A stretch of 32,150 bases of DNA from an uncultured Anaerolineales bacterium (GCA_964449185.1 CAYUYN010000005.1:1-32150), one strand, 5' to 3'; shown: positions 1 through 21,095, numbered from the stretch's first letter. Numbers and translations are program-made. Notes: generated from the sequence alone by a model not told the origin.

Positions 1-2807
1 GAAGCCGACCGCGGCCGGGGCGGGGGCTTTAGCAGGGCTTCCAGCTTGTAGGCATTGGTGCGGCGCGATAGCTCGGCTTCGATCCAATGGCCCGCGGCGG
101 CCCGGGCCGGGTGTCCCTCGCAGAAATGGGCGCGCAGATATTCGAGTACGTTGTCGGGGAGGTCAGCGAGGTGGGTGGCGATGACCGGCTGCTCCAGCGC
201 GGTGCGCAGCAGCTCGCCGGCCCGTTCCGTAAGCACCGGGCTCGTCTCCTGCAAGTGAAACACGGCCAGGGGCAACAACTCGGCCGAGGCGTCAGCGGCG
301 GAGGCGGCTTCAGGCGCGGCCAGCAGGGCCAGCACGCGCCGGATATCGATCTGGCTTTGCTGAAAGACCTCGGCCACTTCGCGGTTCCGCAGCGCGCCGG
401 CCGTGTCCAGATAGCCGCGCAAGCGCGACGCGTCGGGGATTTGCAGCGCGTCCAACCGAGCCTGCGTGCGCGCCACCAGCGCCGCATACTGCGTCCAGGG
501 CATGGCCCCGGCCGCGGTGCCATCGTCTTCAACCAGCAAGTGCCAGAGCAGAGCCTCGTCCAGCGCCGGCAGCTCGCTGAGCTGCTGGAAGAGAACATCT
601 TGGCCGCCGGTGCGGTAGGGAAGCCGCAGCGGCCCCGTGGCGGTCTTGGCCCAACCCAGCGCCTGCGTGGCCGTCAGACCGCTCACGGCCGGGGCCTGCA
701 CCGGCGAGGCGGCGATGGCCGCCAGCCAGTCGTTGCTCCCGGGCAGGTGGGTGAGCAATATCTGGATGTCCTCGGTGGCCACGGCCAGGTCGCCCGCCAG
801 CGAGCGAAAACCGGCTGCCAGCCACGCCGAGAAGACCGTGGCAAACAGGGCTTCATTGACCTGCGCGTAGCCAGGCGGGGTGCAGGCCCGCAGCAGCGAT
901 AGCCCTTTCCCCCGGCCCAAGAGAAAGTTCAGCGCCGGCCCGGCCCCCAGCAAGGCGCCCGCGGGCAGCCGCTCGAGCGCCCGCCACAGGTCTGGCAATT
1001 GCTCGGGCAGGGCCACGGCTTCGTTGAACAGCCACCATTCGCCAAAGCCGGCATCGTGCTCGGCGGCGTGCAGGCTGGCCTGCCACACAAACGGCACCAA
1101 GTCACGCGGCAGCGCGTGCAGCAGGCTGCCGGCGTTGGCGGTCTCGGGCTTGCTGGGGTCCGTGACCAGCGCGCGGCCCTCGGCCAGCAGCTCGCGCCAG
1201 GTGGCCGCGTCGCGGGCCAGCGCGCCATACCAGGCGGGCTGCACCGCCCGCTCCAGCAGGGCCGTGTAATTCTTCAGGTCGCCCTGCCCGGCGCAGCGCC
1301 ACAGCCACAGCAGGCCGGGCAGGTCGGCCGCCAGATCCATGATGCGCAGGGCTTCGCCGAACAGCGCCGAGTCCTGCTGAACCGTCGCCTTCATCGCGAT
1401 GGCCAGCTCGGAGCTGCGCCGCTGCAAGAGCAGCAGCTCCAACACGGGCTGGCCTGTGGCCAGGGTCAGGGGCGCCGTGCCGCCGGCCTGGGTCTTTGAC
1501 GCGGGCGGCAGACGCCGCGCCAGCAGGAGATCGTGGAACAGCTCGGCTTGGTCGTCCGGCGCCACAAGGTTCAGCGACGATTCTGGACTATTGGCCAGCG
1601 AAGCGCGCAGCAAGGCCCGCAGGCGTTCATCTTGCCGGGCGGCCCGGGGCACCGCCAGGTGCGCGGGCGCGTACAGCCACAGCAGGCCATGGTCGGCGTC
1701 GAAGGCCACTTGCAGCAGATCGAGGCGCAGCTCGGCGGGCAGGTCGGCCTGCCGCAGCAGGGCCAGCATCTCTTCCTTGGGCACGCGCCGCAGCAGCCCA
1801 AAGCGCCGCTCACCCAACCGCGCCAGCTCGGGGTAGAGCCGCAGCGCGCCGGCGCCGGGCAGGGGCCGCGCCTGCTTCTCGACCTTGTAGAGCTCAACCG
1901 CTTCGGCCGTGCTGACGTTCAGCGCCAGCAGGCTGGGCAGGGCCTCGTCGTACAGGGCTGCATGCTCCAGCGTGCTGATCGGGGTGTGATAGTTGTCGCT
2001 GAAGCGGCCGGCGCTGGGACCGGGCAGGAAGACGCGGTCGGCGGGCAGGGGCGCGGGCGCATCAGCCGGCAGCGGGAATAACCGCAAATGGACGTTTTGC
2101 ACGCTGACGTAGTCGAGCGCAAAGGAAAAGACGCCCAGCCGCGGCAGCACCCAATACTGCACGGCGTCAATCAGTTGCAGCTTTTCGATGAGGTCCTGGC
2201 CGGGCAGGGGGATGCTGATGGGCTGGGGCGTGCTGGTGGCGCCGGCCACACCCGGCTTGGCCGCGGCGCGCTGAGAGGCGCTGATCAGCGCATTGGTCAC
2301 AAAGCGGACGGCGTCGGGGTTGGGTGCCGTTGGGTCCACGCGTTCAAGCTGCGGGTTCCACGGGAGCAGTTGGCCGCCGGTGGTGTAGTCCTTCAGCCAA
2401 ACTTTGCTATCCGGATGGCGCGCGGCCAGCGCAAGGCCGGTGTACAGGCCGGCGCGCGCCGCGAAAGCCTGTTCGATCATCTCGCGGGTGAGAATGACGA
2501 AGCGCACCTGGTTGAAGGGCCGGTCGGTGCGCGGGTCGGCGCTCAGCTCGCCCTCGCGCCGGCGCTGCACGAGGGTGAACAGGTAGCCGCCCTCGAACAT
2601 CAGCAGCGCCGCCGAGACGCTTCCAACCTGAGCGGCGAAGGGTGAGCCTTCGGGGAAGACCAGGCCGCGGTTGAAGAGCTGCGGGCCGTACGGGGCGACC
2701 TCCGGGTCGGAAAAGGCCAGGGTGCTGAAGTCCAGTGCCCCGTTGGGCACAAAGACTTTGCCGTAGTCGACGTAGCGGGTGGAGAGCGGCACGTGCGGCC
2801 GGATCAT
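1..2807 (-). CDS. Large (>935 aa, 3'-truncated by window edge) protein downstream of the GTPase; putative GTPase-associated (GAP1-like) protein with alpha/beta N-terminal region and long helical C-terminal region
   Basis: Not in the ORF track because no stop codon lies in the window. Hand translation from ATG at 2807 (MIRPHVPLSTRYVDYGKVFVPNGALDFSTLAF...DRPFNQVRFVILTREM...) stays open to base 1 with GC-rich third positions. GAAGG lies 9 nt upstream; 71 bp gap after the GTPase stop. Function is inferred from context. Confidence 0.85.
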   Translation of the reverse strand, partial: MIRPHVPLSTRYVDYGKVFVPNGALDFSTLAFSDPEVAPYGPQLFNRGLVFPEGSPFAAQVGSVSAALLMFEGGYLFTLVQRRREGELSADPRTDRPFNQVRFVILTREMIEQAFAARAGLYTGLALAARHPDSKVWLKDYTTGGQLLPWNPQLERVDPTAPNPDAVRFVTNALISASQRAAAKPGVAGATSTPQPISIPLPGQDLIEKLQLIDAVQYWVLPRLGVFSFALDYVSVQNVHLRLFPLPADAPAPLPADRVFLPGPSAGRFSDNYHTPISTLEHAALYDEALPSLLALNVSTAEAVELYKVEKQARPLPGAGALRLYPELARLGERRFGLLRRVPKEEMLALLRQADLPAELRLDLLQVAFDADHGLLWLYAPAHLAVPRAARQDERLRALLRASLANSPESSLNLVAPDDQAELFHDLLLARRLPPASKTQAGGTAPLTLATGQPVLELLLLQRRSSELAIAMKATVQQDSALFGEALRIMDLAADLPGLLWLWRCAGQGDLKNYTALLERAVQPAWYGALARDAATWRELLAEGRALVTDPSKPETANAGSLLHALPRDLVPFVWQASLHAAEHDAGFGEWWLFNEAVALPEQLPDLWRALERLPAGALLGAGPALNFLLGRGKGLSLLRACTPPGYAQVNEALFATVFSAWLAAGFRSLAGDLAVATEDIQILLTHLPGSNDWLAAIAASPVQAPAVSGLTATQALGWAKTATGPLRLPYRTGGQDVLFQQLSELPALDEALLWHLLVEDDGTAAGAMPWTQYAALVARTQARLDALQIPDASRLRGYLDTAGALRNREVAEVFQQSQIDIRRVLALLAAPEAASAADASAELLPLAVFHLQETSPVLTERAGELLRTALEQPVIATHLADLPDNVLEYLRAHFCEGHPARAAAGHWIEAELSRRTNAYKLEALLKPPPRPRSA

Positions 2808-2878
2808 GGGCGGCGACCTTCGGTCATCAATGCAAAGCGGATGTGGGAGGGCGCGGCGGCCAGGGCCAGCAGGCGCCC

Positions 2879-3868
2879 TCAGTACTGCCGGGTCGGGTAG
2901 CCGATGTACCGCTCAAGCCGGTCCTGCTTGAAATACCAGCGCGGTATCCCGCCGCCGCCCTGCGCCAGCCGTCGCCGCTCCAAATGAGTGAACAACCAAA
3001 AGAACGGCGTTTCCACCTCAAACGGCTGCCAGCGGTCAGGCGACAGCAGGCTGCGCGTGCCGGGATCGAAGTTGGGCTGCTCGCGCGCGTCATCCAGGTA
3101 ACCGGCGGCTGAGACACAAAAGGCCTCGATGCGCATCTTGCTGGCGAAGCTCTTGAGCAGTTGAGCCATCTCGGCGCCGAAGTAGACCTCCACCACCTGC
3201 CAGGGGTTGCGGCCCTGCACGCCCAACTGGTCCACCTTGGTCACGCATACCGCCACGTGGCGCTCGGGCCGGGCGGCCGCCGCCAGCAACTGCAGCAGGT
3301 TGCTCATCATCTGGGTGTATTGGGCCTGGGTATATTGGAAGGAGACGCCAAAGCCCGGTGTGGGCGCCGCCGCGGGCGCGGCCGCGCCGCCAAACAGGGC
3401 GGCCAGGCCCTGACGCGCCGCCGCCGGCTCAGCCTGGACCGGTGCGGCTTCGGTCGTGGTCGTGTCGATCAGGCTGGGGTCGAGCACCGCGATGACACAT
3501 TGGGCATCGCGCAGCGGAACCATCACCACGTTGCTGTTGCCCTGCATCAGCAGCTCGCCCGGCGCGTCGCGTACCACGATGCTGTGGCTGTGCACGCTCA
3601 GCCGGTGGGCCGGCGTGTCGAACTCCGGGCGCACCTTGCGCTGGAACAGCCACACCTTGTCGTAGGCGTCGGAGGTGGCCTGGTTTTGCGGCGCCGCGCT
3701 GGGCGTAATCGCAGCCAGCGCTTGCGGCTGGGCCAGCACATATTCAAACTCGGCGTCGTCTTCGTTGAGGCGATGCAGCGAGCGCGCCAGGGACTGCATC
3801 AGCCAGGTCTTGCCCGAGCTGGAAGGGCCCCAAAACGCAATCTCACGCGGCAGGTTGTCGGTTGCCAT
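2879..3868 (-). CDS. TRAFAC-class P-loop GTPase (resembles GTPases of GAP1/double-GTPase systems)
   Basis: G1 GPSSSGKT, G2 candidate Thr (QATSD), G3 DAPGE, G4 TKVD, G5 VSAAG, C-terminal PFEVETPFFWL. GGAG/AAGG SD upstream. Confidence 0.85.
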   Translation of the reverse strand: MATDNLPREIAFWGPSSSGKTWLMQSLARSLHRLNEDDAEFEYVLAQPQALAAITPSAAPQNQATSDAYDKVWLFQRKVRPEFDTPAHRLSVHSHSIVVRDAPGELLMQGNSNVVMVPLRDAQCVIAVLDPSLIDTTTTEAAPVQAEPAAARQGLAALFGGAAAPAAAPTPGFGVSFQYTQAQYTQMMSNLLQLLAAAARPERHVAVCVTKVDQLGVQGRNPWQVVEVYFGAEMAQLLKSFASKMRIEAFCVSAAGYLDDAREQPNFDPGTRSLLSPDRWQPFEVETPFFWLFTHLERRRLAQGGGGIPRWYFKQDRLERYIGYPTRQY

Positions 3869-3884
3869 GCCTTACTCCAGCGCC

Positions 3885-5018
3885 TCAGCGCGGTCCCGTC
3901 ACGACGACGTAGCTAAAGGTGACCCGGGCTTCGCTGACGATTAGCTCAATGCCGCCCGCGGCGTACAGCCCGGCCGAATCTTCCAGCAGCACCTCAAACA
4001 CATCCGAGTCGTTTACCTGCACGGTCAGCCGGTTGTCGGCGGTGAAGCCGAGGCGCAGGTAGTCTTCCTGCTCGTCCGTGCAGGTGTTGGGGCCGGGGTC
4101 CACTGGTCGCGCAAACACCAGCTCGTTGATGGCATACACCCCCACCCGGCAGTTGCGCAGCACGCGCACCTCGTAGTAAGTCAGGCGGCCGGCGCGGAAG
4201 CGGACACCCACGTAGCTGTTGGAGAAGAAGTTCACCCGCGTAAACGAGGTGGCTAACTCGAAGGCCGGCACGTCCTGCAGGCGCTGGCTGGTGGGGTGCA
4301 GCTCATCCAGGCCGTTGGTGTTCAGGATGAGCTGCGCCTCGCCAAACTCGCTCAGCACCGGGGAGAGCGGCTCGCCGGCGCTGTTGGTCCAGCCGTTTTC
4401 ATTGCTGATCAGGGTGTCGTCGGCGATGACCTGGCGGCCATCGGCCATGCCCAGCAGGAAGGACAGATCGTAGATGTTGGGCTGGCAGGTGGGCGGGTTG
4501 GCCTGCACGCCGTCGCTGCGCATCCAGCCCACCGGCCCCTGGGCCGACCGTACCTGCAGCCAGCCGTTGTCTTCCAGCCGGCCGATGATGGTCACCAGGC
4601 TGTCGCGCGGCACGACCAGCGCGTCGCGCACCTGACCGCCCCCCGGCACCGGGTACAGCCGCTGGTCGGCCTCCGTTGTGCTGCCCAGGCACTCAACCAC
4701 GGCCGCTGGCGGGGTGGCGGTGGGTGTGGAAGTGGCAGTGGGGGTGTCGGTGGGGGTGTGCGTGGCCGTGGGCCGGAAGATTTCGGTTTGGGTCGCGCCG
4801 GCAATGGCCGTTTCGGTGGGCTGGTGGGCAATACGGGTGGCCGCGATCTCGGCGGTGGCCGTGGCGATGTCGGCGTTGGCAGCGACCGCTAACTGTGTGA
4901 GCCGGGCGCCGGTGCGGTCTGCATAATAAGGCGCATAGGCCGCGCCCACCAGTGAGCAGAGCAGCGTCAGGCCAATCAGGCTGGCCAGCACCGTCAGCGT
5001 CACGCGTAAATTCCACAT
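3885..5018 (-). CDS. Membrane-anchored/exported protein: N-terminal TM, Thr/Pro linker, bacterial SH3 domain, C-terminal beta-sandwich (ConA/LamG-like) domain
   Basis: Hydrophobic N-terminus; TATHTPTDTPTATSTPTATP linker; SH3b-like VTIIGRLEDNGWLQVRSAQGPVGWM; beta-rich C-terminus (YVGVRFR...YYEVRV...LTVQVND...GGIEL). SD GGAG. Confidence 0.75.
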   Translation of the reverse strand: MWNLRVTLTVLASLIGLTLLCSLVGAAYAPYYADRTGARLTQLAVAANADIATATAEIAATRIAHQPTETAIAGATQTEIFRPTATHTPTDTPTATSTPTATPPAAVVECLGSTTEADQRLYPVPGGGQVRDALVVPRDSLVTIIGRLEDNGWLQVRSAQGPVGWMRSDGVQANPPTCQPNIYDLSFLLGMADGRQVIADDTLISNENGWTNSAGEPLSPVLSEFGEAQLILNTNGLDELHPTSQRLQDVPAFELATSFTRVNFFSNSYVGVRFRAGRLTYYEVRVLRNCRVGVYAINELVFARPVDPGPNTCTDEQEDYLRLGFTADNRLTVQVNDSDVFEVLLEDSAGLYAAGGIELIVSEARVTFSYVVVTGPR

Positions 5019-5048
5019 GCAGGTTCTCCAGGGCTCCGTGGCGGCCGT

Positions 5049-5285
5049 TTAGAGCGCGCTCAGGCGGGTTTCCAGCGCAACCAGCACGCCGGCGCCAATG
5101 AGCACGGCCAACAGACCCTGGATTGCGATGACGACCCCCATCAGCATCAGCGTGCGAGCCTCGTGCGCGTAGCTGTACCCAATGAGGGGATAGCGGCGCG
5201 AGTGGCACAGCGGGCAGGCCAGGCCCAGGTTGGGCTCGCGCGGGCTGCCGCAGTGTTCGCACGACACGTACCGGATTCTCAGCAT
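5049..5285 (-). CDS. 78-aa zinc-ribbon protein with C-terminal transmembrane helix
   Basis: CEHC...CPLC pair, then hydrophobic LMLMGVVIAIQGLLAVLIGAGVLVAL. Strong SD AAGGAG 5 nt before ATG; 30 bp from the next gene. Confidence 0.75.
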   Translation of the reverse strand: MLRIRYVSCEHCGSPREPNLGLACPLCHSRRYPLIGYSYAHEARTLMLMGVVIAIQGLLAVLIGAGVLVALETRLSAL

Positions 5286-5310
5286 TCAGGCTCCTTGAAC
5301 CACGAGCCTG

Positions 5311-5319: not shown

Positions 5320-5495
5320 GAAGGGCCGAAAAACAGCCAGTGCCGGCCGGACGGCCAAAATACCCTTGCCAAGGCCGGTTTTTGTGCTCTGGCGGGCGCT
5401 TGCCGGAAAAAACGGGGCGTTCTTGGGCGGCCAGCGCTGCCCACCGCCAGCGAACACCCCGATCCCAGGCCAAAGAGAGTTCGCTCTTATGTCGT

Positions 5496-6350
5496 TCAGC
5501 CCTTGGTTGTCTGCCGCGCGTACGGGTTCTCCAGGTCGTTCTCGTCCAGCAGGAACTTGTAGTCTGGGTGCACGCTGGACTTGGACAGGCGATACGGCCC
5601 GGCGATGAAGGTGAAGTGGTAGAGCATGGTACCTGGGCCGCAGGCGGTGGGGTGATAGCCATGGCCCATGTAGGCGGCGTCGTTCTGGCGCAGGCTAAAG
5701 GCCTGGTCCATCTCGCCCTCGTCATCGAATTGCCAGATCAGCCCATAGCCCTGCGGCCTGGAGAACTGGAAGAAGTAGACCTCCTCATAGGGCACTTCGG
5801 TGTCGGGGGTGTCGTACTGGTGGCGGTGCGGCGGCATGGTCGACCAGTTGCCGGACGGGGTGATGGTCTCACCCGAGATGAGCTGGTTGCCGACGGTGTT
5901 GTCTGACCAACACACCATCCGCACGGTGCGCTCCCAGTTGCCCACGCCGCGCAGGCCCGTGCGCGTCTCAGCGGGCGTCACCAGGGCCGGGGGCATATGT
6001 TTGGCGGCCGGGGCGCTGCCCGCGCCGATGAGGGTAGGCCGCACGGCGGTAATGGTCACCCGCTCTTCGCGTGAGACCAGAAGACCGTAAGGCAAGTCGT
6101 TGAAGGGATCGCGCCGCGGGCCCATTTCGCCGGTCAGGCCGCTCGCCAGGCTAAAGCTGACTTGCCCGTGCACCAGCACCAGGGCGTACTCGCGGTCCCC
6201 GGCATCCAGGGTGTAGCTCTCGCCGGGTTGGAGACTGAGCGCGGCCATGCCCAAGGTCTTCAACTGGCTGTCCACGAGCGGGGTCCAGCCGGGCCTGATG
6301 GCCCGGCGAACCCTGCCACAGTCGGTGGCGCGTGCCTTTTCAGTCGCCAT
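5496..6350 (-). CDS. iolB: IolB/KduI-family cupin isomerase (5-deoxy-glucuronate isomerase-like)
   Basis: Motifs GETITPSGNWSTMPPHRH, EEVYFFQF, GYHP. Start moved to MATEK at 6350 (SD GGAGG); the ORF-track extension to 6446 runs through the promoter/operator. Confidence 0.85.
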   Translation of the reverse strand: MATEKARATDCGRVRRAIRPGWTPLVDSQLKTLGMAALSLQPGESYTLDAGDREYALVLVHGQVSFSLASGLTGEMGPRRDPFNDLPYGLLVSREERVTITAVRPTLIGAGSAPAAKHMPPALVTPAETRTGLRGVGNWERTVRMVCWSDNTVGNQLISGETITPSGNWSTMPPHRHQYDTPDTEVPYEEVYFFQFSRPQGYGLIWQFDDEGEMDQAFSLRQNDAAYMGHGYHPTACGPGTMLYHFTFIAGPYRLSKSSVHPDYKFLLDENDLENPYARQTTKG

Positions 6351-6373
6351 TTTTTGTCCTCCGAGATCGCCTA

Positions 6374-6402
6374 TTGACTTTGCCAGATGCTTATAATACA
6401 GT
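6374..6402 (+). promoter_or_regulatory. Sigma70-type promoter for the lacI-glycan operon
   Basis: TTGACT (6374-6379), 17 nt, TACAGT (6397-6402). A TATAAT also lies at 6392-6397. Confidence 0.6.
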
Positions 6403-6422
6403 GAACGCAACCGGTTGCGCAA
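6393..6422 (-). promoter_or_regulatory. Candidate overlapping divergent promoter for iolB
   Basis: Minus strand TTGCGC (6422-6417), 18 nt, TATTAT (6398-6393); the -35 lies inside the operator. Confidence 0.4.
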
Positions 6423-6430
6423 CCGGTTGC
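6407..6430. promoter_or_regulatory. Tandem LacI-family operator, (GCAACCGGTTGC)x2
   Basis: Two abutting perfect 12-bp palindromes with the central CG typical of LacI/GalR operators, just downstream of the -10 and upstream of a LacI gene. Confidence 0.8.
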
Positions 6431-6522
6431 CCAGGGAAATTTTCAAGCCGGCTCGGCATTAGGACGAGACGCCAGGCTGCTCGCCAGCATCCGTCTCCCT
6501 AGTCTTCTCCGCGGAGGCTGTT

Positions 6523-7533
6523 ATGAAGCGGCCGGGAATGGATGACGTGGCCCGCAAAGCCGGCGTTTCCAAAACGACCGTGTCGCACGTCGTCAACCAG
6601 ACGCGTTTTGTAGAAGATGAGACCCGCCAGCGCGTGCTGGACGCCATCTCCGAGCTTGGCTACCGGCCCAACTTCCTCGCCCGCAGCCTCACCACCCAAC
6701 GCACCGGCACGATCGGCATGGTCATCTCCGACTCGTCTAACTATTTCTTCGGCGAGATCATCAACGGGGTCGAAGAGATCCTGCTCCCCAAAAACTACGG
6801 CCTGATCGTCTGCAACACCAACGAAACCCTCGAGCGCGAAGCCCACTACCTGGACTTGCTGCTCTCCCAGCGTGTCGATGGCATCATCGCCGCCGCCACC
6901 AGCCAGCGCTGGGTGGAGCTGACGACGGCTGTTACCCAGCACACGCCCCTGGTCTTTGTGGACCGGTCCTTCAGCAATATGGAAGGCCCCTTCGTGGGCG
7001 TGGACAACCAGCAGGGCGCCTACCTGGGCGTGCGCCACATGCTGGACTGCGGCCACCAGCGCATCGGCATCCTGGCCGGCTACGACCGGCTGTCGACCAT
7101 GCGCGAGCGGCAGGCGGGCTACCTCCAGGCGCTGCAAGAAGCGGGCTGTCCCATCCGCGAGCACTGGATGGTCAGCTCGCCCCTGAGCATTGAAGGCGGC
7201 CGCCAGTCCATGCGCCAGATCCTCAGCCTCCCCGACCGTCCGAGCGCCGTCTTTATCAACAACAACCTCCTGAGCTTGGGCGCGCTGCTGGAGCTGCGCG
7301 AGGACGGCATCCGCTGCCCGGACGAGCTGGCGGTGGTGGGTTTCGACGATCATCCCTGGGCGGCGGTGGCCGACCCGCCCCTGACCGTGGTGCGCCAGCC
7401 GGCCCAGGAGTTGGGCCGCACCGCCGCCCGCCACCTGTTGGCGCTCATCGACCAGCAGCCCCTGGCCCAGCCCAAGGTCCTTTTGCAGTGCGAGCTGGTG
7501 GTGCGCCAGTCGTGCCGGAACCTGTCTGCATGA
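6523..7533 (+). CDS. LacI-family transcriptional regulator
   Basis: HTH MDDVARKAGVSKTTVSHVVN, hinge YRPNFLARSL, C-terminal VVGFDD...PPLTVVRQP. SD GGAGG. Confidence 0.95.
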   Translation: MKRPGMDDVARKAGVSKTTVSHVVNQTRFVEDETRQRVLDAISELGYRPNFLARSLTTQRTGTIGMVISDSSNYFFGEIINGVEEILLPKNYGLIVCNTNETLEREAHYLDLLLSQRVDGIIAAATSQRWVELTTAVTQHTPLVFVDRSFSNMEGPFVGVDNQQGAYLGVRHMLDCGHQRIGILAGYDRLSTMRERQAGYLQALQEAGCPIREHWMVSSPLSIEGGRQSMRQILSLPDRPSAVFINNNLLSLGALLELREDGIRCPDELAVVGFDDHPWAAVADPPLTVVRQPAQELGRTAARHLLALIDQQPLAQPKVLLQCELVVRQSCRNLSA

Positions 7534-9740
7534 GCCAAACCGAAACGGCCGACTTCTACGTCTCGCCCACCGGCAGCGACGCCAACCCCGGCACCGAGGC
7601 GCTGCCCTTTGCCACCGTGAGCCAGGCCCAGCGCGCCGTCCGCCAGGCACGCGCCGGCCAGGCCGACCCAGTGCGGGTGGCCCTGCGCGCCGGCACCCAT
7701 TACCTCCGTGAAACCCTGGTTTTTGGACCCGAAGACAGCGGCACGACGTACGGCTCCTACCCTGGCGAAATCGCCACGCTCAGCGGCGGCACGCCACTTG
7801 CTTGTGCGTGGCAGCCCTTCCGGGACGGCATTTTCCAGTGCGAGCTCCCGGCCGACAAAGCGGGCCAACTATCCTTCACGCAATTGTTTGTCAACGGGCG
7901 GCGCCAGGTGCGGGCGCGGTACCCTAATTACGACAACTCCAACCCCAAGCAGTACACCGGCTACATCCACGCGTCAGCCAAGCTGCCTGACGACCTGGCC
8001 GACCCGTGCCCTGGTCCCAACGATGACATGACCTTTTCCAGCGGGCCGGCGCGTGGCGTGCTCTTCGACCCGCAGACCTTCACCCCGCGGCGGTGGGCCA
8101 GGCCGGCCGAGGCCGTTATCCACATCTACCAGTCGCACTATTGGGGCAACCTCCAGTGGCAGCTCAAGCACATCGATTGGGAGCAGTACGCCGTGTGGTT
8201 TGGCGCCGGTGGCCAGCAAATGGGGGCGAAGTGGCACGCGGACCCGTGCGGGGTGAATCACAAATCACGCTTCTTTGTCGAAAACGTGTTTGAGGAATTG
8301 GATGCGCCCGGCGAGTGGTATTTGGACCACGAGCAGGGCGTTCTGTATTTCTTTCCGCCGGAGGGCGTGGACCTCTCGACCGCCGTGGTTGAAGTTTCGC
8401 GCCTCCAGCAGATCGTCCGCCTGATCGGCACGCCCGACCGGCCGGTGCGTCAGGTGGCCTTCGAGAATCTGCGTTTCGCGCACACCGCTGCAACCTTCCT
8501 CGAGCCATACTGCGTGCCGTCGCTGAGCGATTGGGCCATTCACCGGGGCGGCACGGCGTTTCTGGAGGGCACGCGCGACTGCGCCATACGCGACTGCTTC
8601 TTCGACGCGGCGGGCGGCAATGCGGTCTTCCTCAACAACTATAACCGCGGCGCCCGGGTCAGCGGCTGCCGCTTCACCGAGGCCGGCGAGAGCGCGGTCT
8701 GCCTGGTGGGCACCCTGGACATTACGGTCGGCACCCAGCGGCACTTCCCGTACGAGTGCGTGGTGGAGAACAACCTCATCCACGACTGCGGCGTCTTTGG
8801 CAAGCAGGTGGCCGGGGTCTACCTCTCGCGGGCTAAGCGCATCACGGTCGCCCACAACGAAATCTACGACATGCCCCGCGCCGGCATCTGCATCGGCGAT
8901 GGCACCTGGGGCGGCCACGTCATCGAGTACAACCACATCCACGACACCTGCCGCGAGACCGGCGATCACGGTCCGTTCAATGCCTGGGGCCGCGACCGCT
9001 ACTGGTGCCTGGTTCAGTCGCACACCCACGAGCCGGGCGCACGCGGCCATGCGGCCGGCCACGTCCTGGTTGATGCCATGGAAACGGTGGTGGTGCGGCA
9101 CAACTTCTTTGAAGAGGAAACCGGCTGGGGGCTGGATTTGGACGATGGCGCCTCCAACTACGACATCTACAACAATCTGTGCGTCGGCGTCAGCCTCAAG
9201 CTGCGCGAGGGCGCCTACCGCACTATCCACAACAACATCTGGGTGGATGGCGCCAACTCGGTCTGCTTCCACGTCGGCAACGCCGACAACCACGACCGCT
9301 ACTTTGGCAACATCGCGGTGATGACCATCGCCAACATGCAGCCCCAGATGGACCTGGACTTCCTCATGGGCAATGCCTACGGCGAAATTTACACCCTCAT
9401 CGCGCCGCCCGAGCACGGCCCGTGGCTGGAGGAGATTGACCGCAACTGCTTTTACAGCGACCTGGGCCACTTCGTGGCGCGCGCCCGCCTGCGCGGCGAG
9501 GCTGAGGGCCACAAGTATTCGCTGGCCGAGTGGCAGGCGCTGGGCTTCGACCAGAACTCAGTCTTCGCCGATCCGCTTTTTGTCGATCGCGAGCGCGGCG
9601 ATTACCGCGTTCGGCCCGAGTCGCCCGCGCTCAAGCTGGGTTTCCAGAATTTCGACATGGACCATTTCGGCCTGACCGAGGCGTTTCCACCGCATTGGCG
9701 GGGTAGGGGCGTTCAATTGAACGCTCCTACCCCGCCGTAA
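7530..9740 (+). CDS. Right-handed beta-helix glycoside hydrolase, GH141-like, no signal peptide
   Basis: N-terminal FYVSPTGSDANPGT..PFAT, QLFVNGRRQVRARYPN, FFVENVFEELDAPGEWYLD, parallel beta-helix repeats, DLDDGASN. ATGA overlap with the lacI stop supports the start at 7530. Confidence 0.75.
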   Translation: MSQTETADFYVSPTGSDANPGTEALPFATVSQAQRAVRQARAGQADPVRVALRAGTHYLRETLVFGPEDSGTTYGSYPGEIATLSGGTPLACAWQPFRDGIFQCELPADKAGQLSFTQLFVNGRRQVRARYPNYDNSNPKQYTGYIHASAKLPDDLADPCPGPNDDMTFSSGPARGVLFDPQTFTPRRWARPAEAVIHIYQSHYWGNLQWQLKHIDWEQYAVWFGAGGQQMGAKWHADPCGVNHKSRFFVENVFEELDAPGEWYLDHEQGVLYFFPPEGVDLSTAVVEVSRLQQIVRLIGTPDRPVRQVAFENLRFAHTAATFLEPYCVPSLSDWAIHRGGTAFLEGTRDCAIRDCFFDAAGGNAVFLNNYNRGARVSGCRFTEAGESAVCLVGTLDITVGTQRHFPYECVVENNLIHDCGVFGKQVAGVYLSRAKRITVAHNEIYDMPRAGICIGDGTWGGHVIEYNHIHDTCRETGDHGPFNAWGRDRYWCLVQSHTHEPGARGHAAGHVLVDAMETVVVRHNFFEEETGWGLDLDDGASNYDIYNNLCVGVSLKLREGAYRTIHNNIWVDGANSVCFHVGNADNHDRYFGNIAVMTIANMQPQMDLDFLMGNAYGEIYTLIAPPEHGPWLEEIDRNCFYSDLGHFVARARLRGEAEGHKYSLAEWQALGFDQNSVFADPLFVDRERGDYRVRPESPALKLGFQNFDMDHFGLTEAFPPHWRGRGVQLNAPTPP
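9697..9736. repeat. GTAG-type REP-like 40-bp palindrome inside the 3' end of the GH141-like gene
   Basis: GGCGGGGTAGGGGCGTTCAA / TTGAACGCTCCTACCCCGCC; 19 of 20 positions complementary, one G-T. Confidence 0.8.
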
Positions 9741-9787
9741 ACGCGAGCAGAACCCGCATCTCACCAAGGGGCATAGAGAGGCTTCTT

Positions 9788-11224
9788 ATGCAGACCGCGT
9801 TCGAACCGTCCTGGAACTCACTCAAGACCCACGTCACCCCGCGCTGGTTTCAAGAGGCCAAGTTTGGCATCTACACGCATTGGGGTGTCTATTGCGTCCC
9901 GGCCTTTGGCCCCAACGCCACCTGGTACCCGTACCACATGTATCGCAAGGGCACCGTCCAGTACGAGCACCACCTCAAGACGTACGGCCACCCGGGCACG
10001 TTTGGCTACAAAGACTTCATCCCCATGTTCACGGCCGAGAAGTTCGACCCGATGGAGTGGGCCGAGCTGTTCCGCCTCTCGGGGGCGCGCTATGCCGGGC
10101 CGGTGGGCGAGCACCACGACGGCTTCTGCATGTGGGACACCCAGTATTCGGAGTGGAGCGCGGCCAAGATGGGGCCCAAGCGCGACGTGGTGGGCGAGCT
10201 GGAAAAGGCCATCCGCAAGGAGGGGCTGCGCTACCTGGTGGCGCTGCACCACGCTGAAAATTGGTGGTTCTACCCCCACTGGAAGCCGGAGTACGACACC
10301 TACGACCCGCGTTACGCCGGCCTGTACGGCGACCCGCACGACCTGGATGGCAACGTGGGCCCAAAGCTGATGGAGCAGACGCGCCCCAGCCTCAAGTTCA
10401 TGGAGACGTGGAAGGGCAAGATCATCGAGCTGATCGACAAGTACGAGCCGGATGTGCTCTGGTTTGACTTTGGCCTGCGCGGACTGGCCGAGCAGTACAA
10501 GCAGGAGTTCATGGCCTACTACTACAACTGGGCTCAGTCCAAGGGCAAAGAGGTGGCGGTGACCTACAAGGCCTACGACTTGGCCCCCGGTTCCGGCGTG
10601 GTGGACCTGGAGCTGGGCCGCATGAACTTGTTGACTTACTACGACTGGATCACCGACACCACCATCGACGACGGGCAGGGCTGGGGCTATCTCAAGGACA
10701 CGCCCTACAAATCGGTCACCACCCTGGTGCACTACCTGGTGGACAACGTCAGCAAGAATGGCTACCTGCTGCTTAACGTCGGTCCCAAGCCCGACGGCAC
10801 CATCCCCGCCGAGGGCCATGCCCTGCTCAAGGACATCGGCAAGTGGATGGAGGTCAACAGCGAGTCCATCTACGGCACCACCAACTGGATCGCTTATGGC
10901 GAAGGCCCGACCCAAATGGAGAAGGGCGGCTCCTTCAACGAGAAGGATGTGGCCGGCTTTACCAACAAAGACGTGCGCTTTGCCGTGCGCGACAACGTGC
11001 TCTATGCCACGCTGCTGGGCTGGCCCGGCCAGGAAATCACCATCGAGACGCTCAAGCGTCTCTACGCGGCTGAAATCCAATCCATCCGCATGCTCGGCTC
11101 GGACCAGGAGCTGCGCTGGAAGCTAGACACGACGACGGGCCTCACGATTGAAACGCCCGCCGACAAGCCGTGCGAGCACGCCTACGTCTTCAAAATCACC
11201 CGCGGAGACCCGTATGGCCGCTGA
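9788..11224 (+). CDS. GH29 alpha-L-fucosidase-family hydrolase (copy A), cytoplasmic
   Basis: WFQEAKFGIYTHWG, EHHDGF, GPKRDVVGEL, nucleophile motif VLWFD, VSKNGYLLLNVGPKPDGTIP, ESIYGT; no signal peptide. Confidence 0.92.
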   Translation: MQTAFEPSWNSLKTHVTPRWFQEAKFGIYTHWGVYCVPAFGPNATWYPYHMYRKGTVQYEHHLKTYGHPGTFGYKDFIPMFTAEKFDPMEWAELFRLSGARYAGPVGEHHDGFCMWDTQYSEWSAAKMGPKRDVVGELEKAIRKEGLRYLVALHHAENWWFYPHWKPEYDTYDPRYAGLYGDPHDLDGNVGPKLMEQTRPSLKFMETWKGKIIELIDKYEPDVLWFDFGLRGLAEQYKQEFMAYYYNWAQSKGKEVAVTYKAYDLAPGSGVVDLELGRMNLLTYYDWITDTTIDDGQGWGYLKDTPYKSVTTLVHYLVDNVSKNGYLLLNVGPKPDGTIPAEGHALLKDIGKWMEVNSESIYGTTNWIAYGEGPTQMEKGGSFNEKDVAGFTNKDVRFAVRDNVLYATLLGWPGQEITIETLKRLYAAEIQSIRMLGSDQELRWKLDTTTGLTIETPADKPCEHAYVFKITRGDPYGR

Positions 11225-11309
11225 ACACTCAGCAGAGAGGAGCCAGGTCTAGCCAACTCGAGGGAAGGAGAAGGGGACAAGCCGATGCCGATGCCGGATG
11301 GAGCAAAAG

Positions 11310-13370
11310 ATGAAAACGCATAAACCCATGGCATGTCTGTTAGTGGCGGCCATCTTCCTGGTTGCCTGCGGCGCCCAAACGCCCACGACCACGGCCAACA
11401 CGGCCGTGGCGGCGCTCACCGCGACCACTGCCGCCGCTCCGGCGACCGAGGTCGCCAGTGAAGGCCCGTACACCGATTACTATTTCACCACCGTCGACGA
11501 GTACAGCGCCGCGACGGGCAATACCATCGCCGCCTTTGGTGAGGCGCCCATGCTGACCGCGCGGGTCGACAGCGGCGACCTGCCGCCGGTGGCCGAGCGC
11601 TTGCCCGCCCAGCCCGCCGTGGTGCGCACCCGCGAGGGCTCGGCCAGCCAGTACGGCGGCGAGATGCACCTGGTGGGCTTCTTTGAGGGCGCGGGTGTCT
11701 TCACCCAGTTCACCGAAGACACCCAAAAGGGCCTCATCTCCTGGGACGTCAGCTACAAGACGTTTTACCCCAACATCGCCCAGGGCTGGGAGCTCGCGTC
11801 GGATGCCAAGAGCCTCAAGCTGTTCCTGCGCGAGGGGATGAAGTGGTCGGACGGCGACGACTTTGACGCCGACGACTTCGTCTTCTGGTACGAAGACTTG
11901 CTGCAAAATGCGGAGCTGAACCCCGAGATCGACCCGGCCTACCAGCCGGGCGGCGAGCTGATGGGCCTCAATAAGCTCGACCAGTACACCGTGGAGTTCA
12001 CCTTCGCGGCGCCGTACCCGCGCGCGGTGGAAATCATCATTAATACCGATGAGATCTACCGCCCGGTACACTTCCTCAAGAACTACCTGCCGCAGTACAA
12101 TCCCGATGCCCAGGCCCTGGCCGAGAGTGAGGGCCTGGACTCGTGGCAGCTAGCCCTGGAGTTTCACCAGTCGTACAACGCCGACCCGAGCTCCCCGACC
12201 CTGCTGCCGTGGGTGCTCAAGGATGTCGGCTCGGACTCCGCGCTGTGGGAGCGCAACCCCTACTTCTGGCGCGTGGACTCAGACGGCAACCAACTGCCTT
12301 ATATCGACACCCTGCTGGTCAGCATCGCCACCGACCCCAATTCCACCAACCCGGTTAAGGTCATGGCCGGCGAAGTGGACTGGGAGATCATGGGCCTGAC
12401 GATCGAGGACTACCCGGTGCTCAAGGGCGCCGAGGCCCAGGGCGGCTACAAGGCCTACCTGTGGCCCGACAACGCGACTTCCACCGCGCTGGGCTTTGCC
12501 CTAAACTACACGCACCAAGACCCGATCCTGCGCGAGATCTTCAACGACCTGCGCTTCCGCCAGGCGCTGTCGCTGGCCGTGGATCGCGAAGACATCAACC
12601 AGACCATCTTCTTTGGCCAGACCGAGCCGTTTGTGGCGCCCGTCGGCCGCACCTGGACCGGCTTTGAAGACTGGATGGCCACCTACTACGCCGAGCACGA
12701 CGTGGACAAGGCCAATGCCCTGCTGGATGAGATGGGCCTGGAATGGGACGCCGCCCACCAGTGGCGCCTGCGCTCCGACGGCCAGCCCCTGATCATCCTG
12801 GGCGAGCACACCGTGGACTACCTGAGCTACGCCGACGACCTGCTGGCCATCGTGGCCAACAATTGGGCCGACCTAGGCGTGAACTTCCAGCCCAAGTTCG
12901 TGCCGGGCGATGTGCTGATCCCGCGCTACGTGGCCAACGAGCAGGACGTGGGCATCTGGAACAGCGACGGCGGCACCGAGCCTGCGGGCCACACGCAGTA
13001 CCCCATCCGTCTGATTCCGCCGTGGCACCATATGGGCACCGACTGCTGCGCCATGTCGTCGTACCCCTGGCGCCAATGGCTGGACACGGACGGCGCCGCG
13101 GGCGAAGAGCCGCCGGAGACCATCAAGCATCTCTTCCAGCTCTCGCAGGATTGGCTGGCCGCCGAGGCCGGCACGCCTGAATACGAGGCGCTGACCAAGG
13201 AGCTGATCAAGATCAACGTCGAAAACCTATACTTCTTCGGCACGGTCAGCGCGCCGCCGCGCGTGGTCATCACCAGCGACCGCATGGGCAACCTGCCCGG
13301 CACGGACGGCGCCTTTGGCTCCGAGATGCTCCGGCCTTACCTGCCCGAGGTCGCCTATATCAAGCAGTAA
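11310..13370 (+). CDS. ABC transporter substrate-binding lipoprotein, family 5 (oligosaccharide type)
   Basis: Lipobox LVAC, Thr/Ala linker, EAPML...GDLPPVAERLP, LREGMKWSDG, RNPYFWRVDSDGNQLPYID, FRQALSLAVDR; very acidic. GGAG 6 nt before ATG 11310 (alternative start 11298). Confidence 0.92.
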   Translation: MKTHKPMACLLVAAIFLVACGAQTPTTTANTAVAALTATTAAAPATEVASEGPYTDYYFTTVDEYSAATGNTIAAFGEAPMLTARVDSGDLPPVAERLPAQPAVVRTREGSASQYGGEMHLVGFFEGAGVFTQFTEDTQKGLISWDVSYKTFYPNIAQGWELASDAKSLKLFLREGMKWSDGDDFDADDFVFWYEDLLQNAELNPEIDPAYQPGGELMGLNKLDQYTVEFTFAAPYPRAVEIIINTDEIYRPVHFLKNYLPQYNPDAQALAESEGLDSWQLALEFHQSYNADPSSPTLLPWVLKDVGSDSALWERNPYFWRVDSDGNQLPYIDTLLVSIATDPNSTNPVKVMAGEVDWEIMGLTIEDYPVLKGAEAQGGYKAYLWPDNATSTALGFALNYTHQDPILREIFNDLRFRQALSLAVDREDINQTIFFGQTEPFVAPVGRTWTGFEDWMATYYAEHDVDKANALLDEMGLEWDAAHQWRLRSDGQPLIILGEHTVDYLSYADDLLAIVANNWADLGVNFQPKFVPGDVLIPRYVANEQDVGIWNSDGGTEPAGHTQYPIRLIPPWHHMGTDCCAMSSYPWRQWLDTDGAAGEEPPETIKHLFQLSQDWLAAEAGTPEYEALTKELIKINVENLYFFGTVSAPPRVVITSDRMGNLPGTDGAFGSEMLRPYLPEVAYIKQ

Positions 13371-13398
13371 CGCCGAGCTCGTAAGCCTCACGATCACC

Positions 13399-13489
13399 CA
13401 GACTCCCTCCCCGGTTGGCGGCGCGATGGTGCTGCGCATGCGCAGCCTCAGCGCGCCGCCAACGGGGGAAGGCTGGGGGTGGGGGTCTG
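13399..13489. repeat. Nested hairpin / REP-like element between the SBP and permease genes
   Basis: 12-bp stem GTTGGCGGCGCG (13414-13425) / CGCGCCGCCAAC (13452-13463) encloses the perfect 16-bp palindrome GCTGCGCATGCGCAGC (13431-13446); flanked by CTCCCTCCCC and GGGGGAAGGCTGGGGGTGGGGG. Confidence 0.75.
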
Positions 13490-13552
13490 ACCTGAGCTAC
13501 ACCCGTATCGGTGCCGTCTGACTCATAGGGGTTGCTTCCGAAAGCTGCTCAC

Positions 13553-14545
13553 ATGCTCAACTACCTGCTGCGTCGTTTGCTGTACATGGTGCTGCTGGTC
13601 GTCGTGTTGAGCATCGTCACCTTCCTCATCATCCAGCTTCCGGCCGGCGACTTCGTCAACACCCTGGCCCTGCAGTACGCCGCGGCCGGAGAGCACGTTG
13701 ACCAGACTCGCCTCAACAACCTCCGCCACCAATTTGGCCTTGACCAGCCCGTCTACATCCAATACTTGCGTTGGATCGGCAACGTGATCCAGGGCGACCT
13801 GGGCTGGTCCTTTCAGTTCAAGAAGCCCGTCGCCACCCTCATCGGCGAGCGGGTGCAGCTCACGGCCATCATCTCGCTGGTCACGCTGGTGATGACGTAC
13901 ATGCTGGCGGTACCCATCGGCATCTACTCGGCCGTCCGCCAATACACCCTGGGCGACTACTTCTTCATGTTCTTGGGATTTCTTGGCCTGGCCGCGCCTA
14001 GTTTCCTCCTGGCGCTGATCCTCATGGTGTTCCTGCTCAACCTGGGTCTCAGCGTGGGCGGCCTATTCTCGCCCGAGTTCCTGCGGGCACCCTGGAGCGT
14101 GGCGCGTGTGTTCGACCTGCTCAAGCACCTGCCCCTGCCCATCCTCATTATCGGGCTGGGCGGCACGGCCGGGCTCATCCGCGTCATGCGCGCCTCCCTA
14201 CTGGACGAGATCGGCAAGCAGTACGTCGTCACCGCACGCGCCAAGGGTGTCAGCGAAACGCGCCTATTGTTCAAATACCCGGTGCGCGCCTCGCTCAACC
14301 CCATCGTCAGCACCATCGGCTGGGAGCTGCCCGCCATCGTCTCGGGCGGCGTGATCGTGGAGATGGTGCTCAACCTGCCCACCACCGGTCCCATGCTCTA
14401 CAGCGCGCTGCTCAAGGAAGACATGTTCCTGGCCTCCAGCCTGCTGCTCTTCCTCAACTGCCTGACCGTCATCGGCACCCTGATCTCCGATATTGCGCTG
14501 GTCGTGGTCGACCCCCGCATCCGCTTTACGGCGCGCGAGAATTAG
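13553..14545 (+). CDS. ABC permease, DppB/OppB family
   Basis: MLNYLLRRLL, FGLDQPVYIQYLRW, GDLGWS, EAA-like YVVTARAKG, DPRIR. Confidence 0.93.
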   Translation: MLNYLLRRLLYMVLLVVVLSIVTFLIIQLPAGDFVNTLALQYAAAGEHVDQTRLNNLRHQFGLDQPVYIQYLRWIGNVIQGDLGWSFQFKKPVATLIGERVQLTAIISLVTLVMTYMLAVPIGIYSAVRQYTLGDYFFMFLGFLGLAAPSFLLALILMVFLLNLGLSVGGLFSPEFLRAPWSVARVFDLLKHLPLPILIIGLGGTAGLIRVMRASLLDEIGKQYVVTARAKGVSETRLLFKYPVRASLNPIVSTIGWELPAIVSGGVIVEMVLNLPTTGPMLYSALLKEDMFLASSLLLFLNCLTVIGTLISDIALVVVDPRIRFTAREN

Positions 14546-14548
14546 CCA

Positions 14549-15670
14549 ATGGCCGTGGCTGCGCCCTCCATCCCGCTGACTGCCGAGGAGAAATACTACC
14601 TCGCCTCGCAGTGGCAGCTCATGTGGCAGAAGTTCCGGCGCCACAAACTGGCTATCATCGGCGGCGGGCTGATGCTGACCCTCTACGTCATCGCGATCTT
14701 TGCCGACTTTATCTCGCCTTATCTGTCGGAACAGCGCTACCCGCGGTTCCCCTTCCACCCGCCCTCTGCCGTGCGTATTGTGGATGCCCAGGGCCGCTGG
14801 CAGCGGCCGTTCGTCTACGAAACCACGGCCGTGCGCGACCTGGAAACCCTGGGGCTGACCTACGACGTCAACCGCGATATTCGCCATCCCATCCGCTTCT
14901 TTGCCCGCGGCGAGCCATACAAGCTGCTGGGTCTGGTCCCGACCAACGTGCATCTCTTTGGCGTGGACGAGCCGGCCGGCCTCTTTCTCTTCGGCACCGA
15001 CCGGCTTGGCCGTGATGTGCTCACACGTACCTTTTACGCGGCGCGCCTGTCGCTGTCCATTGGCCTGGTCGGGGTGGCGTTGTCTTTTACCATCGGCGTG
15101 ACCCTGGGCGGCATCTCGGGCTACTTTGGCGGCGCGATCGATACGGTCATCCAGCGCATCATTGAATTCCTGATTTCGGTGCCCACCGTGCCCATCTGGA
15201 TCGCCCTCAGCGCCGCGCTGCCGCGCGAGTGGACCGTCATCCAAATCTATTTCGGCATCGTGGTCATCCTGTCGCTGGTGGGGTGGGGTGGCCTGGCGCG
15301 CGTGGTGCGCAGCAAGTTCCTCGAGCTGCGCGAGCTGGACTATGTGCTGGCCGCGCGCGTGGCTGGGGTGAGCGAGGCCGCGATCATCGCCGTGCACCTG
15401 CTGCCCAACTTCGCCAGCTACTTGATCGTGGCGCTAACCCTGGACATCCCGGGCGTCATCCTGGCCGAGACGGCTCTGAGCTTCCTGGGCCTGGGCCTGC
15501 GCGCGCCGGCCGTGAGCTGGGGCGTGCTGCTGGAAGACGCGCAAAACGTCCACAGCATCGCGCTGTATTGGTGGACCATCATCCCGGCCCTGTTCGTCAT
15601 GACAACCGTGCTGGCCTTCAACTTCCTGGGCGATGGTCTGCGCGACGCTGCCGACCCGTACAAGCTGTAG
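14549..15670 (+). CDS. ABC permease, DppC/OppC family
   Basis: FRRHKLAIIG, FGTDRLGRD, DYVLAARVAG, ETALSFLGLG, FNFLGDGLRDAADP. Confidence 0.93.
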   Translation: MAVAAPSIPLTAEEKYYLASQWQLMWQKFRRHKLAIIGGGLMLTLYVIAIFADFISPYLSEQRYPRFPFHPPSAVRIVDAQGRWQRPFVYETTAVRDLETLGLTYDVNRDIRHPIRFFARGEPYKLLGLVPTNVHLFGVDEPAGLFLFGTDRLGRDVLTRTFYAARLSLSIGLVGVALSFTIGVTLGGISGYFGGAIDTVIQRIIEFLISVPTVPIWIALSAALPREWTVIQIYFGIVVILSLVGWGGLARVVRSKFLELRELDYVLAARVAGVSEAAIIAVHLLPNFASYLIVALTLDIPGVILAETALSFLGLGLRAPAVSWGVLLEDAQNVHSIALYWWTIIPALFVMTTVLAFNFLGDGLRDAADPYKL

Positions 15671-15685
15671 CATGGGAGACGCCTG

Positions 15686-16729
15686 ATGACGGCTTCGATG
15701 GAGGTGGTGTCTCCGGCCAACGGCCGCACCCCACGACCCTTGCTGGAGGTCGAAGACCTGCGCGCGCACTTCTTCGTGAACGAGGGCGTGCTGAAGGCCG
15801 TCGACGGCGTCAGCTTTACCGTCCACCCGGAAGGGACCCTGGGCCTGATCGGCGAGAGCGGCTGCGGCAAGAGCGTCACGGCCCATGCGTTGCTGCGCAT
15901 CGTGCCTTCGCCGGGCAAGCTGGTGGGGGGCGCCATCAAGCTGCATCTTGACGACCGCACCGTGGACCTGGCGCAGCTCAGCCCCTCGGGCCGAGAAATC
16001 CGCCGCGTTCGCGGCAAGGAAATCGCCATGGTGTTTCAGGAGCCGATGACCAGCCTCTCGCCCCTGCACACCATCGGCGACCAAATCCGCGAGGCCATCC
16101 TGCTCCACCGCACCCGTGACCGCAAGGAGGCGCAAGCCATCGCCCTGGACATGCTGGCGCGCGTGGGAATCGCCAATCCGCGCCAGCGGCTCAACGAGTT
16201 CCCGCACCAGCTCTCCGGCGGCATGCGCCAACGCGCCATGATCGCCATGGCGCTCTCCTGCCACCCGAAGCTGCTGATTGCCGACGAGCCCACCACGGCC
16301 CTGGACGTGACCGTCCAGGCCCAGATACTCAGCCTGATCCAGGAGCTCCAACAGGAGTTTCACATGTCGGTGCTCTACATCACCCACGACCTGGGGGTGA
16401 TCGCCGAGGTCTGCCACAATGTGGCCGTGATGTACCTGGGCAAGATCGTGGAGTACGGGACGGTGCGTGACATTTTTTACCGGCCGCTGCACCCCTACAC
16501 CATCCGCCTGCTCAAGTCGCGGCCGACGGTGAGCCAGAACCCTGGCGAGCGGCTCGAGTCGATCCGCGGCCACGTCCCGGTGCCCTTGGATTTGCCGGTG
16601 CAGTGCGGCTTCGTGGACCGCTGCCCCGAGGTTATGCGCGGCCGCTGCGATGTGGCCGCCCCCGAGCTGATCGAGCAGGAGCCCGGCCACTGGGTGCGCT
16701 GCTTCTTGTACAACGGGCGAGGCCAATAG
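15686..16729 (+). CDS. ABC ATP-binding protein, DppD/OppD family
   Basis: Walker [30 protein letters not shown]-terminal Cys-rich oligo_HPY tail. Confidence 0.95.
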
Positions 16730-17806
<1,077 letters not shown>

Positions 17807-17818
17807 GGCGCGGCCCAG

Positions 17819-21081: not shown

Positions 21082-21095
21082 GGCGGAGAAGAACC

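Follow-up and report, generated by a model that had tools for sequence, protein, structure and literature searches.

A split four-gene GTPase cassette of Anaerolineales as a candidate branch of the DO-GTPase conflict systems, with a large partner protein missed by current models

We describe here a four-gene cassette, Z-S-G-L, found in a 32,150-nucleotide stretch of DNA (the window) from an uncultured Anaerolineales bacterium (GCA_964449185.1, CAYUYN010000005.1:1-32150). The window begins at base 1 of contig C5 in a genome assembly of 4.63 Mb and 671 contigs. The cassette encodes a small Zn-ribbon protein with a transmembrane (TM) helix (Z), a membrane-anchored protein with an SH3-like domain and a beta-sandwich (S), a TRAFAC GTPase (G) and a large partner protein (L). 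As judged from sequence, what is new here is a split-gene form of GAP1-N2-like systems whose partner protein is not recognized by current models. The reading we favour, with a confidence only modestly above even, is that the cassette represents, within the DO-GTPase ‘GTPase-centric’ conflict systems (Kaur, Burroughs, Iyer and Aravind, eLife 2020, PMC7159879), a branch of split architecture not described before, and that its products form a membrane sensor-switch complex. We begin with the conservation of the four genes as a unit and the kinship of G with DO-GTPases.

First of all, comparison of loci indicates that the four genes are one conserved unit, well beyond chance. In the window they are co-oriented, with intergenic gaps of 30, 16 and 71 nt and a motif resembling a Shine-Dalgarno sequence before each start (AAGGAG for Z, then GGAG, GGAG and GAAGG), so that the open reading frames (ORFs) and a reading of the sequence bear out the original prediction, which was made from the window alone, on gene layout. 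Co-occurrence of the four genes had been set as a test beforehand; the order Z-S-G-L is kept in all six GTPase-carrying related Anaerolineales genomes and recurs in distant metagenome loci. A word-indexed search returned 58 GTPase homologs, nearly all of them 72–94% identical, and a GTPase profile run against 1.84 billion representatives found full-length homologs of 24–44% identity in 362 clusters (at 50% identity) at E ≤ 1e-3, 121 of these at 1e-30. Scanning metagenome contigs yielded 44 loci, of which 30 are distant (23–35% identity, 34–65% GC); their ORFs were called and then classified with profiles and jackhmmer. Where at least 1.5 kb lay upstream of the first GTPase (n = 13), an S homolog was present in nine and a Z homolog in ten; where at least 1 kb lay downstream of the last GTPase (n = 14), 11 carried an L homolog. 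Complete examples among the distant loci (L056, L058, L067, L069, L070, L082, L083 and L084) read Z-S-G(1–5)-L, the number of GTPase copies per distant locus being one to five. One such Z-S-G(1–5)-L cassette belongs to another genome of the order (G249), which has 44.6% GC. Across the distant loci the four families stay neighbours at 22–38% identity.

The unit is also patchy in occurrence and variable in position. The GTPase was found in 7 of the 61 relatives searched and, in an even sample of the phylum, in 2 of 401 genomes at E ≤ 1e-10; the cassette occurs in 6 of 22 genomes of the same family and in none of 38 from other families of the order. Among the flanking ORFs of at least 150 aa, none is common to the window and the relatives’ loci or shared among those loci, and the gene that follows L differs between relatives and is mostly convergent. 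The DUF1800 and polyprenyl synthetase genes of the window, in contrast, keep their linkage to each other in four genomes of the same family, at 64–71% identity and on other contigs than the cassette. The cassette is thus the sole conserved block, in a different place in each genus. It had also been suggested that the operon might continue past the left edge of the window; the sequence of the two contig ends places there only the rest of gene L, about 125 codons, and no other cassette genes. The gene is split by an assembly gap between C5 and contig C607 of the same genome, the end of which holds the missing C-terminal part of L (a P/A-rich linker and a TM helix). The cassette spans about 5.6 kb.

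Second, profile comparison identifies G as a homolog of the DO-GTPases and not as a member of a housekeeping family. The five GTPase motifs proposed to be intact can all be read in the protein (G1 GPSSSGKT at residues 14–21, T65, DAPGE at 101–105, TKVD at 210–213 and SAAG at 253–256), and a family-specific motif lies towards the C terminus (W280/P282/PFFW288–291, of the form W..P..PFFW..E). An AF2 model of G, with a mean predicted local distance difference test score (pLDDT) of 61.6, gave 33 Foldseek matches at E ≤ 1e-3, led by TRAFAC GTPases such as Nog1, YsxC/EngB and Sar1 (best E 4e-5). G combines the TRAFAC-class fold with the G1–G5 motifs, as expected of a DO-GTPase. Its top Pfam family is DO-GTPase2 (PF19993; E 2e-4, 21.6 bits), with 12.8 bits for DO-GTPase1 (PF19975), and DO-GTPase scores among 30 family representatives run from 16 to 25 bits. 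For reference we used bona fide DO-GTPase2/GAP1-N2 loci, which score above cut-off in 15 of 301 Chloroflexota genomes, none of them the window’s own. When the alignment of the family GTPases (A5, 60 sequences) was set against 15 Chloroflexota DO-GTPase2 proteins encoded beside GAP1-N2 (A8), hhalign returned 98.5% (E 1.7e-15) over 249 columns, from the P-loop through the PFFW/PFLW motif, which places G in the DO-GTPase superfamily, as part of a branch not captured by the models in Pfam. This result and the scarcity of the gene among relatives and across the phylum set G apart from housekeeping GTPases.

Other searches with the GTPase returned little: P-loop matches alone (E ≥ 0.33) when its profile was run against the sequences of solved structures, nothing meaningful in NCBIfam, no match in a phage collection, and in PADLOC-DB v2/2.0 solely Csx3, on the P-loop (E 0.029). 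Within the A5 family, GKD replaces GK[ST] in 14 of 60 members (the column of residue 21 in G, sequence P0003 of the alignment) and Asn replaces the Walker B Asp (the column of residue 101) in 13 of 60; these substitutions suggest inactive paralogs in loci with two to five GTPase genes, which is probably what they are. An A/P-rich insert of about 40 residues in G (138–176; window 3341–3457), modelled at pLDDT < 50, is present in the Anaerolineales clade and absent from P0062, a homolog of 33% identity.

The architecture of the other three proteins, with topologies read from sequence, places parts of the cassette on both sides of the membrane. Z is a single-pass protein with a cytoplasmic ribbon, the cysteines of which (C9, C12, C24 and C27) show no variation across all 17 homologs aligned; a GYSYAHEA motif is present, and the C-terminal TM helix starts at about residue 43. 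A Z-type ribbon is fused directly onto the family GTPase P0196, and N-terminal TM helices are fused to the family GTPase in at least ten representatives; both halves of Z thus have counterparts joined to the GTPase in other proteins, an argument for Z as the membrane tether of G. S is predicted to be a type-II membrane protein, with a TM helix at residues ~4–27 and an A/T/P-rich stalk, and to lie wholly outside the cell except for about three cytoplasmic residues. Its SH3-like domain (~110–178) is bracketed by the conserved cysteines C110 and C178, and its C-terminal beta-sandwich (~179–377, about 200 residues) carries conserved C290 and C313, cysteine pairs that fit an extracytoplasmic placement. 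The SH3 assignment draws on a Pfam SH3_3 match below cut-off (E 0.0019) and on matches of the S family profile to SH3 domains in the PDB (E 0.0013–0.05), and the C-terminal domain falls near 3-keto-disaccharide-hydrolase/GH16-like clusters in the ESM Atlas (0.93, 160 shared features), as a lead only.

The N-terminal region of L, up to about residue 260, is strongly conserved, with invariant G16, K17, R83, E85, R96 and Q217, and residues 1–280 were modelled at pLDDT mostly below 60; a predicted alpha-solenoid follows at residues 290–925 with pLDDT of about 90. Full-length relatives of L, of 1,004–1,112 aa, end in the P/A-rich linker and one TM helix, so that L would be a tail-anchored, single-pass protein with about 930 residues inside the cell. 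Foldseek with the L model met generic HEAT/ARM solenoids and gave no match at E ≤ 1e-3, the best PDB entries being CRM1 and importin-13 with Ran (E 1.3e-3); the likeness to Ran with CRM1 or importin-beta lies in the solenoid of residues 290–925, has TM-scores of 0.11–0.16, and is a generic structural analogy for which no homology is claimed. With G cytoplasmic, S outside and both the Z ribbon and most of L inside, the predicted topology agrees with the trans-membrane, outside-in input to a GTPase switch that had been proposed.

The distant loci add two exceptional forms. In three of them (L061, L064 and L065) a TIR_2 protein ends in the Z module, as does a Peptidase_C14 (caspase) protein in one (L057), these four loci having no S; in L073, L080 and L081, TM helices are fused to the GTPase. 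Neighbours in distant loci include an FGE-sulfatase protein, FHA+Zn-ribbon proteins and a Prok-RING protein, and one family GTPase carries EAD7. Other family GTPases are fused to an N-terminal ParA/MinD-like domain or, within proteins of about 1,500 aa, to GAF-GAF-receiver modules (fusions in P0133, P0159, P0132, P0181 and P0143, the EAD7 one included). Domains of these kinds, TIR and caspase among them, are listed by Kaur et al. (PMC7159879) for their conflict systems. A subtype represented by L083 (7058–7591), L084 (6453–6980) and L090 (16238–16771) encodes after L a protein of conserved size (~175 aa) that starts with a TM helix and has no match in Pfam, and its L carries an internal TM helix at about residue 640–715. 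More remotely, plasmid pNsp_h of Nostoc sp. ATCC 53789, which is mobilizable, encodes two GTPases of the wider family (L093 6829–16631; E 3e-18 and 1e-11 against A5), behind which come two vWA proteins and a protein of 812 aa that resembles neither L nor GAP1, with a dynamin-family gene upstream.

The closest known relatives are the GAP1-N2-type systems. Like them, the cassette pairs a TRAFAC GTPase homologous to DO-GTPase2 with a ~1,000-aa protein encoded immediately downstream and bearing a C-terminal TM helix, contains a Zn ribbon, TM helices and an extracellular SH3/beta-sandwich part, is predicted to act at the membrane, and is found in Chloroflexota and other filamentous bacteria. According to Kaur et al. 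(PMC7159879), Zn ribbon, TM, SH3 and beta-sandwich elements already occur within GAP1-N2 systems, as fusions, and a C-terminal TM is frequent there; a Zn ribbon is N-terminal in 60% of DO-GTPases and paired paralogs are present in 38% of systems. In the window, on the other hand, the ribbon with its TM helix and the SH3/beta-sandwich with its own are separate small genes and not GTPase fusions: G has no N-terminal Zn ribbon, the ribbon being encoded two genes upstream as gene Z, and the locus has a single GTPase without a paired paralog. The large protein, moreover, has no detectable GAP1-N2 or GAP1-M, and the GTPase lies below the Pfam cut-off. The GAP1-N1-type systems are more remote. The TIR and caspase domains of the sister loci overlap the GAP1-N1 effector repertoire listed in PMC7159879, but the cassette lacks GASH and GAAD domains, a GAP1-N1 match and an effector, and the sister-locus effectors ride on the ribbon-TM module and not on GAP1 or an EAD/GAAD adaptor.

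These elements suggest how a sensor-switch complex might work. S would display its SH3 and lectin-like beta-sandwich domains outside the cell and sense a cue in the envelope or cell wall, for example damage or the attack of an invader. As S has almost no cytoplasmic part, the signal is proposed to pass by TM-TM contacts to Z, to the tail-anchored L, or to both. The cytoplasmic ribbon of Z would keep G at the membrane, as the in trans equivalent of the fused N-terminal ribbon of canonical DO-GTPases. G would then cycle between GTP and GDP under the control of the N-terminal region of L, the invariant Arg, Glu and Gln of which could act on the nucleotide pocket of G, and the solenoid of about 640 residues could serve as assembly platform or output. 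Since the Anaerolineales form of the cassette has no enzymatic effector, that output may consist in altering the membrane or envelope, or in recruiting factors encoded elsewhere. A predicted complex of L(1–290) with G scored 0.00, which counts neither for nor against binding. The immune part of this reading derives from the sister loci and from the patchy, relocating distribution.

A number of results weigh against the assignment to the conflict systems. First, G misses the Pfam gathering cut-off for DO-GTPase2 (21.6 against 27 bits), so that of the proposed DO-GTPase affiliation the homology stands by hhalign while the profile match itself falls short. The conserved Walker B glutamate (DxxGE) is given as a mark of DO-GTPases by Kaur et al. 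(PMC7159879); its position was read here from A8, where the Glu after DxxG is invariant, and it is present in G (E105) but in just 6 of the 60 members of A5. Second, no recognizable effector domain was found by Pfam in the window cassette. In PADLOC-DB 2.0, Z, S and L matched no family and G none in a meaningful way; the anti-phage GTPase systems in that database resemble the cassette in having a P-loop GTPase within an accessory cassette, and differ in that the four cassette proteins have no meaningful match among them. Third, G and Z are 76–82% identical between genera, compared with 64–71% for two comparison proteins, and so give no sign of an arms race in the cassette core. The flanks, too, are not defence islands: they hold carbohydrate-utilization genes here and assorted metabolic and regulatory genes in relatives. 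When defence-island context was sought in five relatives, assorted metabolic genes were found, with one RVT_1 and one AAA_16-TPR gene near two loci, too few to count; the former is an RVT_1 gene followed by an ABC-ATPase gene (L009 16933–17982, in the relative G014), 1.8 kb upstream of the cassette. Finally, no experimental test of any DO-GTPase system was found in the literature searched, so that the label ‘conflict’ is itself a prediction. To these must be added the failure of L to match GAP1. With the GAP1 Pfam models (PF20012 GAP1-N1, PF20013 GAP1-N2 and PF20014 GAP1-M), none of 27 close L homologs was matched at E ≤ 10 and none of eight distant ones at E ≤ 0.01, and hhalign of L alignments (27 close or 15 diverse sequences) against 11 bona fide GAP1-N2 proteins gave 0.03–0.2%.

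This last point bears directly on a competing explanation to which we assign an appreciable but minority probability: that the cassette is a true, highly divergent GAP1-N2 system, in which L is a GAP1 that has drifted past profile detection and the domains have become un-fused. L starts directly downstream of G, in the position of GAP1, and its length of about 1,050 aa falls within the 979–1,157 aa of Chloroflexota GAP1-N2 proteins, so that gene order, size and C-terminal TM helix all match GAP1; the ribbon, TM, SH3 and beta-sandwich elements described for GAP1-N2 systems point the same way. In the ESM Atlas, a comparison by protein-language-model features, which gives leads only and for which calibration on protein parts has not been established, the clusters nearest to L 1–290 are GAP1-N2, GAP1-N1 or GAP1-M in 10 of the 10 best family-bearing matches (scores 0.94, 0.93 and 0.93; 189, 186 and 185 shared features). 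The best hhalign alignment, not significant, likewise lands on the GAP1-M region. Against this, the comparisons with N- and M-domain sub-alignments of L were as negative as those with whole proteins (≤0.2%, with 0.1% for A6M against A4M), L has no Pfam match, and a six-frame search of the whole genome with PF20014 (GAP1-M) found nothing at the L gene. A profile search of a 5.8-billion-protein set with the diverse L alignment retrieved 30 proteins, from close Anaerolineales only, with no bridge to GAP1. The FNIII-repeat companion of GAP1-N2 is also missing, as no fn3 match was found by Pfam in any of the four cassette proteins. The identification of the large partner as GAP1, which the original prediction had put forward, thus keeps the ESM Atlas lead alone; it could not be shown by sequence comparison, and we do not file L as GAP1 although it occupies its place. 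One weak six-frame GAP1-N2 match on another contig of the genome (G000:C65:8149-8376, minus strand; 21.8 bits, E 4.8e-4) was treated as chance, which it probably is, being antisense to a 933-aa ORF on a contig without a GTPase, Z, S or L homolog.

The main rival to the immune reading, serious though in our estimate less likely than not, is a non-immune module for envelope signalling or morphogenesis, in which S reads a wall or surface glycan while the GTPase and L organize a membrane-proximal process such as wall remodelling, filament septation or surface-layer assembly. The same features that count against a conflict system speak for such a module, namely the lack of an effector domain, the conservation of G and Z above the comparison proteins and the metabolic flanks, and the SH3 and lectin-like domains of S are typical of cell-wall or glycan binding. 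It fits less well with the patchy occurrence in family and phylum, with a position that differs between all genomes, with the fusion of TIR or caspase to Z in sister loci and the association of EAD7 and FGE-sulfatase, and with the related GTPases that stand beside vWA and dynamin genes on the mobilizable Nostoc plasmid. That the four are merely neighbouring genes without a common function, or that G is a housekeeping GTPase, is very improbable, the former being contradicted by synteny at such low identities and the latter by the failure to find the gene in most of the related genomes searched. A look for RNA evidence of co-transcription met no RNA run among 19 listed.

The favoured reading of a split-architecture conflict system can be taken further, as a speculation that we regard as plausible but hold with well under even confidence: the cassette may be the smallest version of an unnamed third class of GTPase-centric membrane systems. 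Outside-in sensing of the envelope would there be linked to DO-like GTPases by a free-standing ribbon-TM adaptor (TIR- or caspase-bearing in sister loci) together with an extracytoplasmic SH3/lectin-like receptor, and the partner would be a tail-anchored alpha-solenoid without detectable GAP1 character. If true, this would be a bacterial transmembrane receptor-to-GTPase pathway of immunity or stress response, built from single-pass proteins. The DO-GTPase/GAP1 systems rank with the largest families of predicted conflict systems in prokaryotes and have been linked to a multicellular habit; with the family described here, 362 or more sequence clusters (at 50% identity) would join the GTPase-centric systems, in a cassette that the models of Pfam, NCBIfam and PADLOC overlook or score too low. 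With ribbon and anchor, sensor, switch and scaffold each on a polypeptide of its own, the proposed contacts (Z-G, G-L and S-Z/L) can be addressed singly, and where a sister locus has TIR or caspase on its Z module, a direct read-out is at hand. Within the literature searched, DO-GTPase/GAP1 systems are treated solely in the 2020 eLife paper (PMC7159879), with a passing mention of DO-GTPases in a 2026 ParA preprint. That literature gives no account of the Z-S-G-L combination, although the eLife source-data supplements, which lay outside the search and may list members, should be kept in mind; with no PADLOC match either, the combination still appears uncharacterized, as had been supposed.

Table 1. 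Features of the cassette and of its surroundings, in window coordinates
Feature	Position	Strand	Description
Gene Z	5049-5285	-	78 aa, Zn ribbon + TM
Gene S	3885-5018	-	377 aa, TM + SH3 + beta-sandwich
Gene G	2879-3868	-	329 aa GTPase
Gene L	3-2807	-	First 935 codons, open at contig end, of a ~1,050-aa protein
Shine-Dalgarno AAGGAG	5291-5296	-	5 nt before the start codon of Z
Terminator-like hairpin + T-run	5334-5349	-	Between the upstream KduI/IolB gene and Z
KduI/IolB	5496-6446	-	Flanking carbohydrate cluster
LacI regulator	6523-7533	+	Flanking carbohydrate cluster
GH141-like beta-helix protein	7488-9740		Flanking carbohydrate cluster
GH29 alpha-L-fucosidases, two	9788-11224 and 18570-20024		Flanking carbohydrate cluster
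Opp-type ABC transporter	11298-17806		Flanking carbohydrate cluster
DUF1800/DUF1501 pair + polyprenyl synthetase	24897-30589

The terminator-like hairpin upstream of Z is a possible 5′ boundary of the cassette transcription unit, for which the evidence is weak: three such sites were observed in 6.6 kb and 3.6 were expected from shuffles, a number that is not significant alone. Beyond it, the cassette is flanked by a carbohydrate-utilization cluster of fucose and uronate type (window 5496–21938), which also contains a Zn-dependent alcohol dehydrogenase (Zn-ADH) and an amidohydrolase_2 protein.

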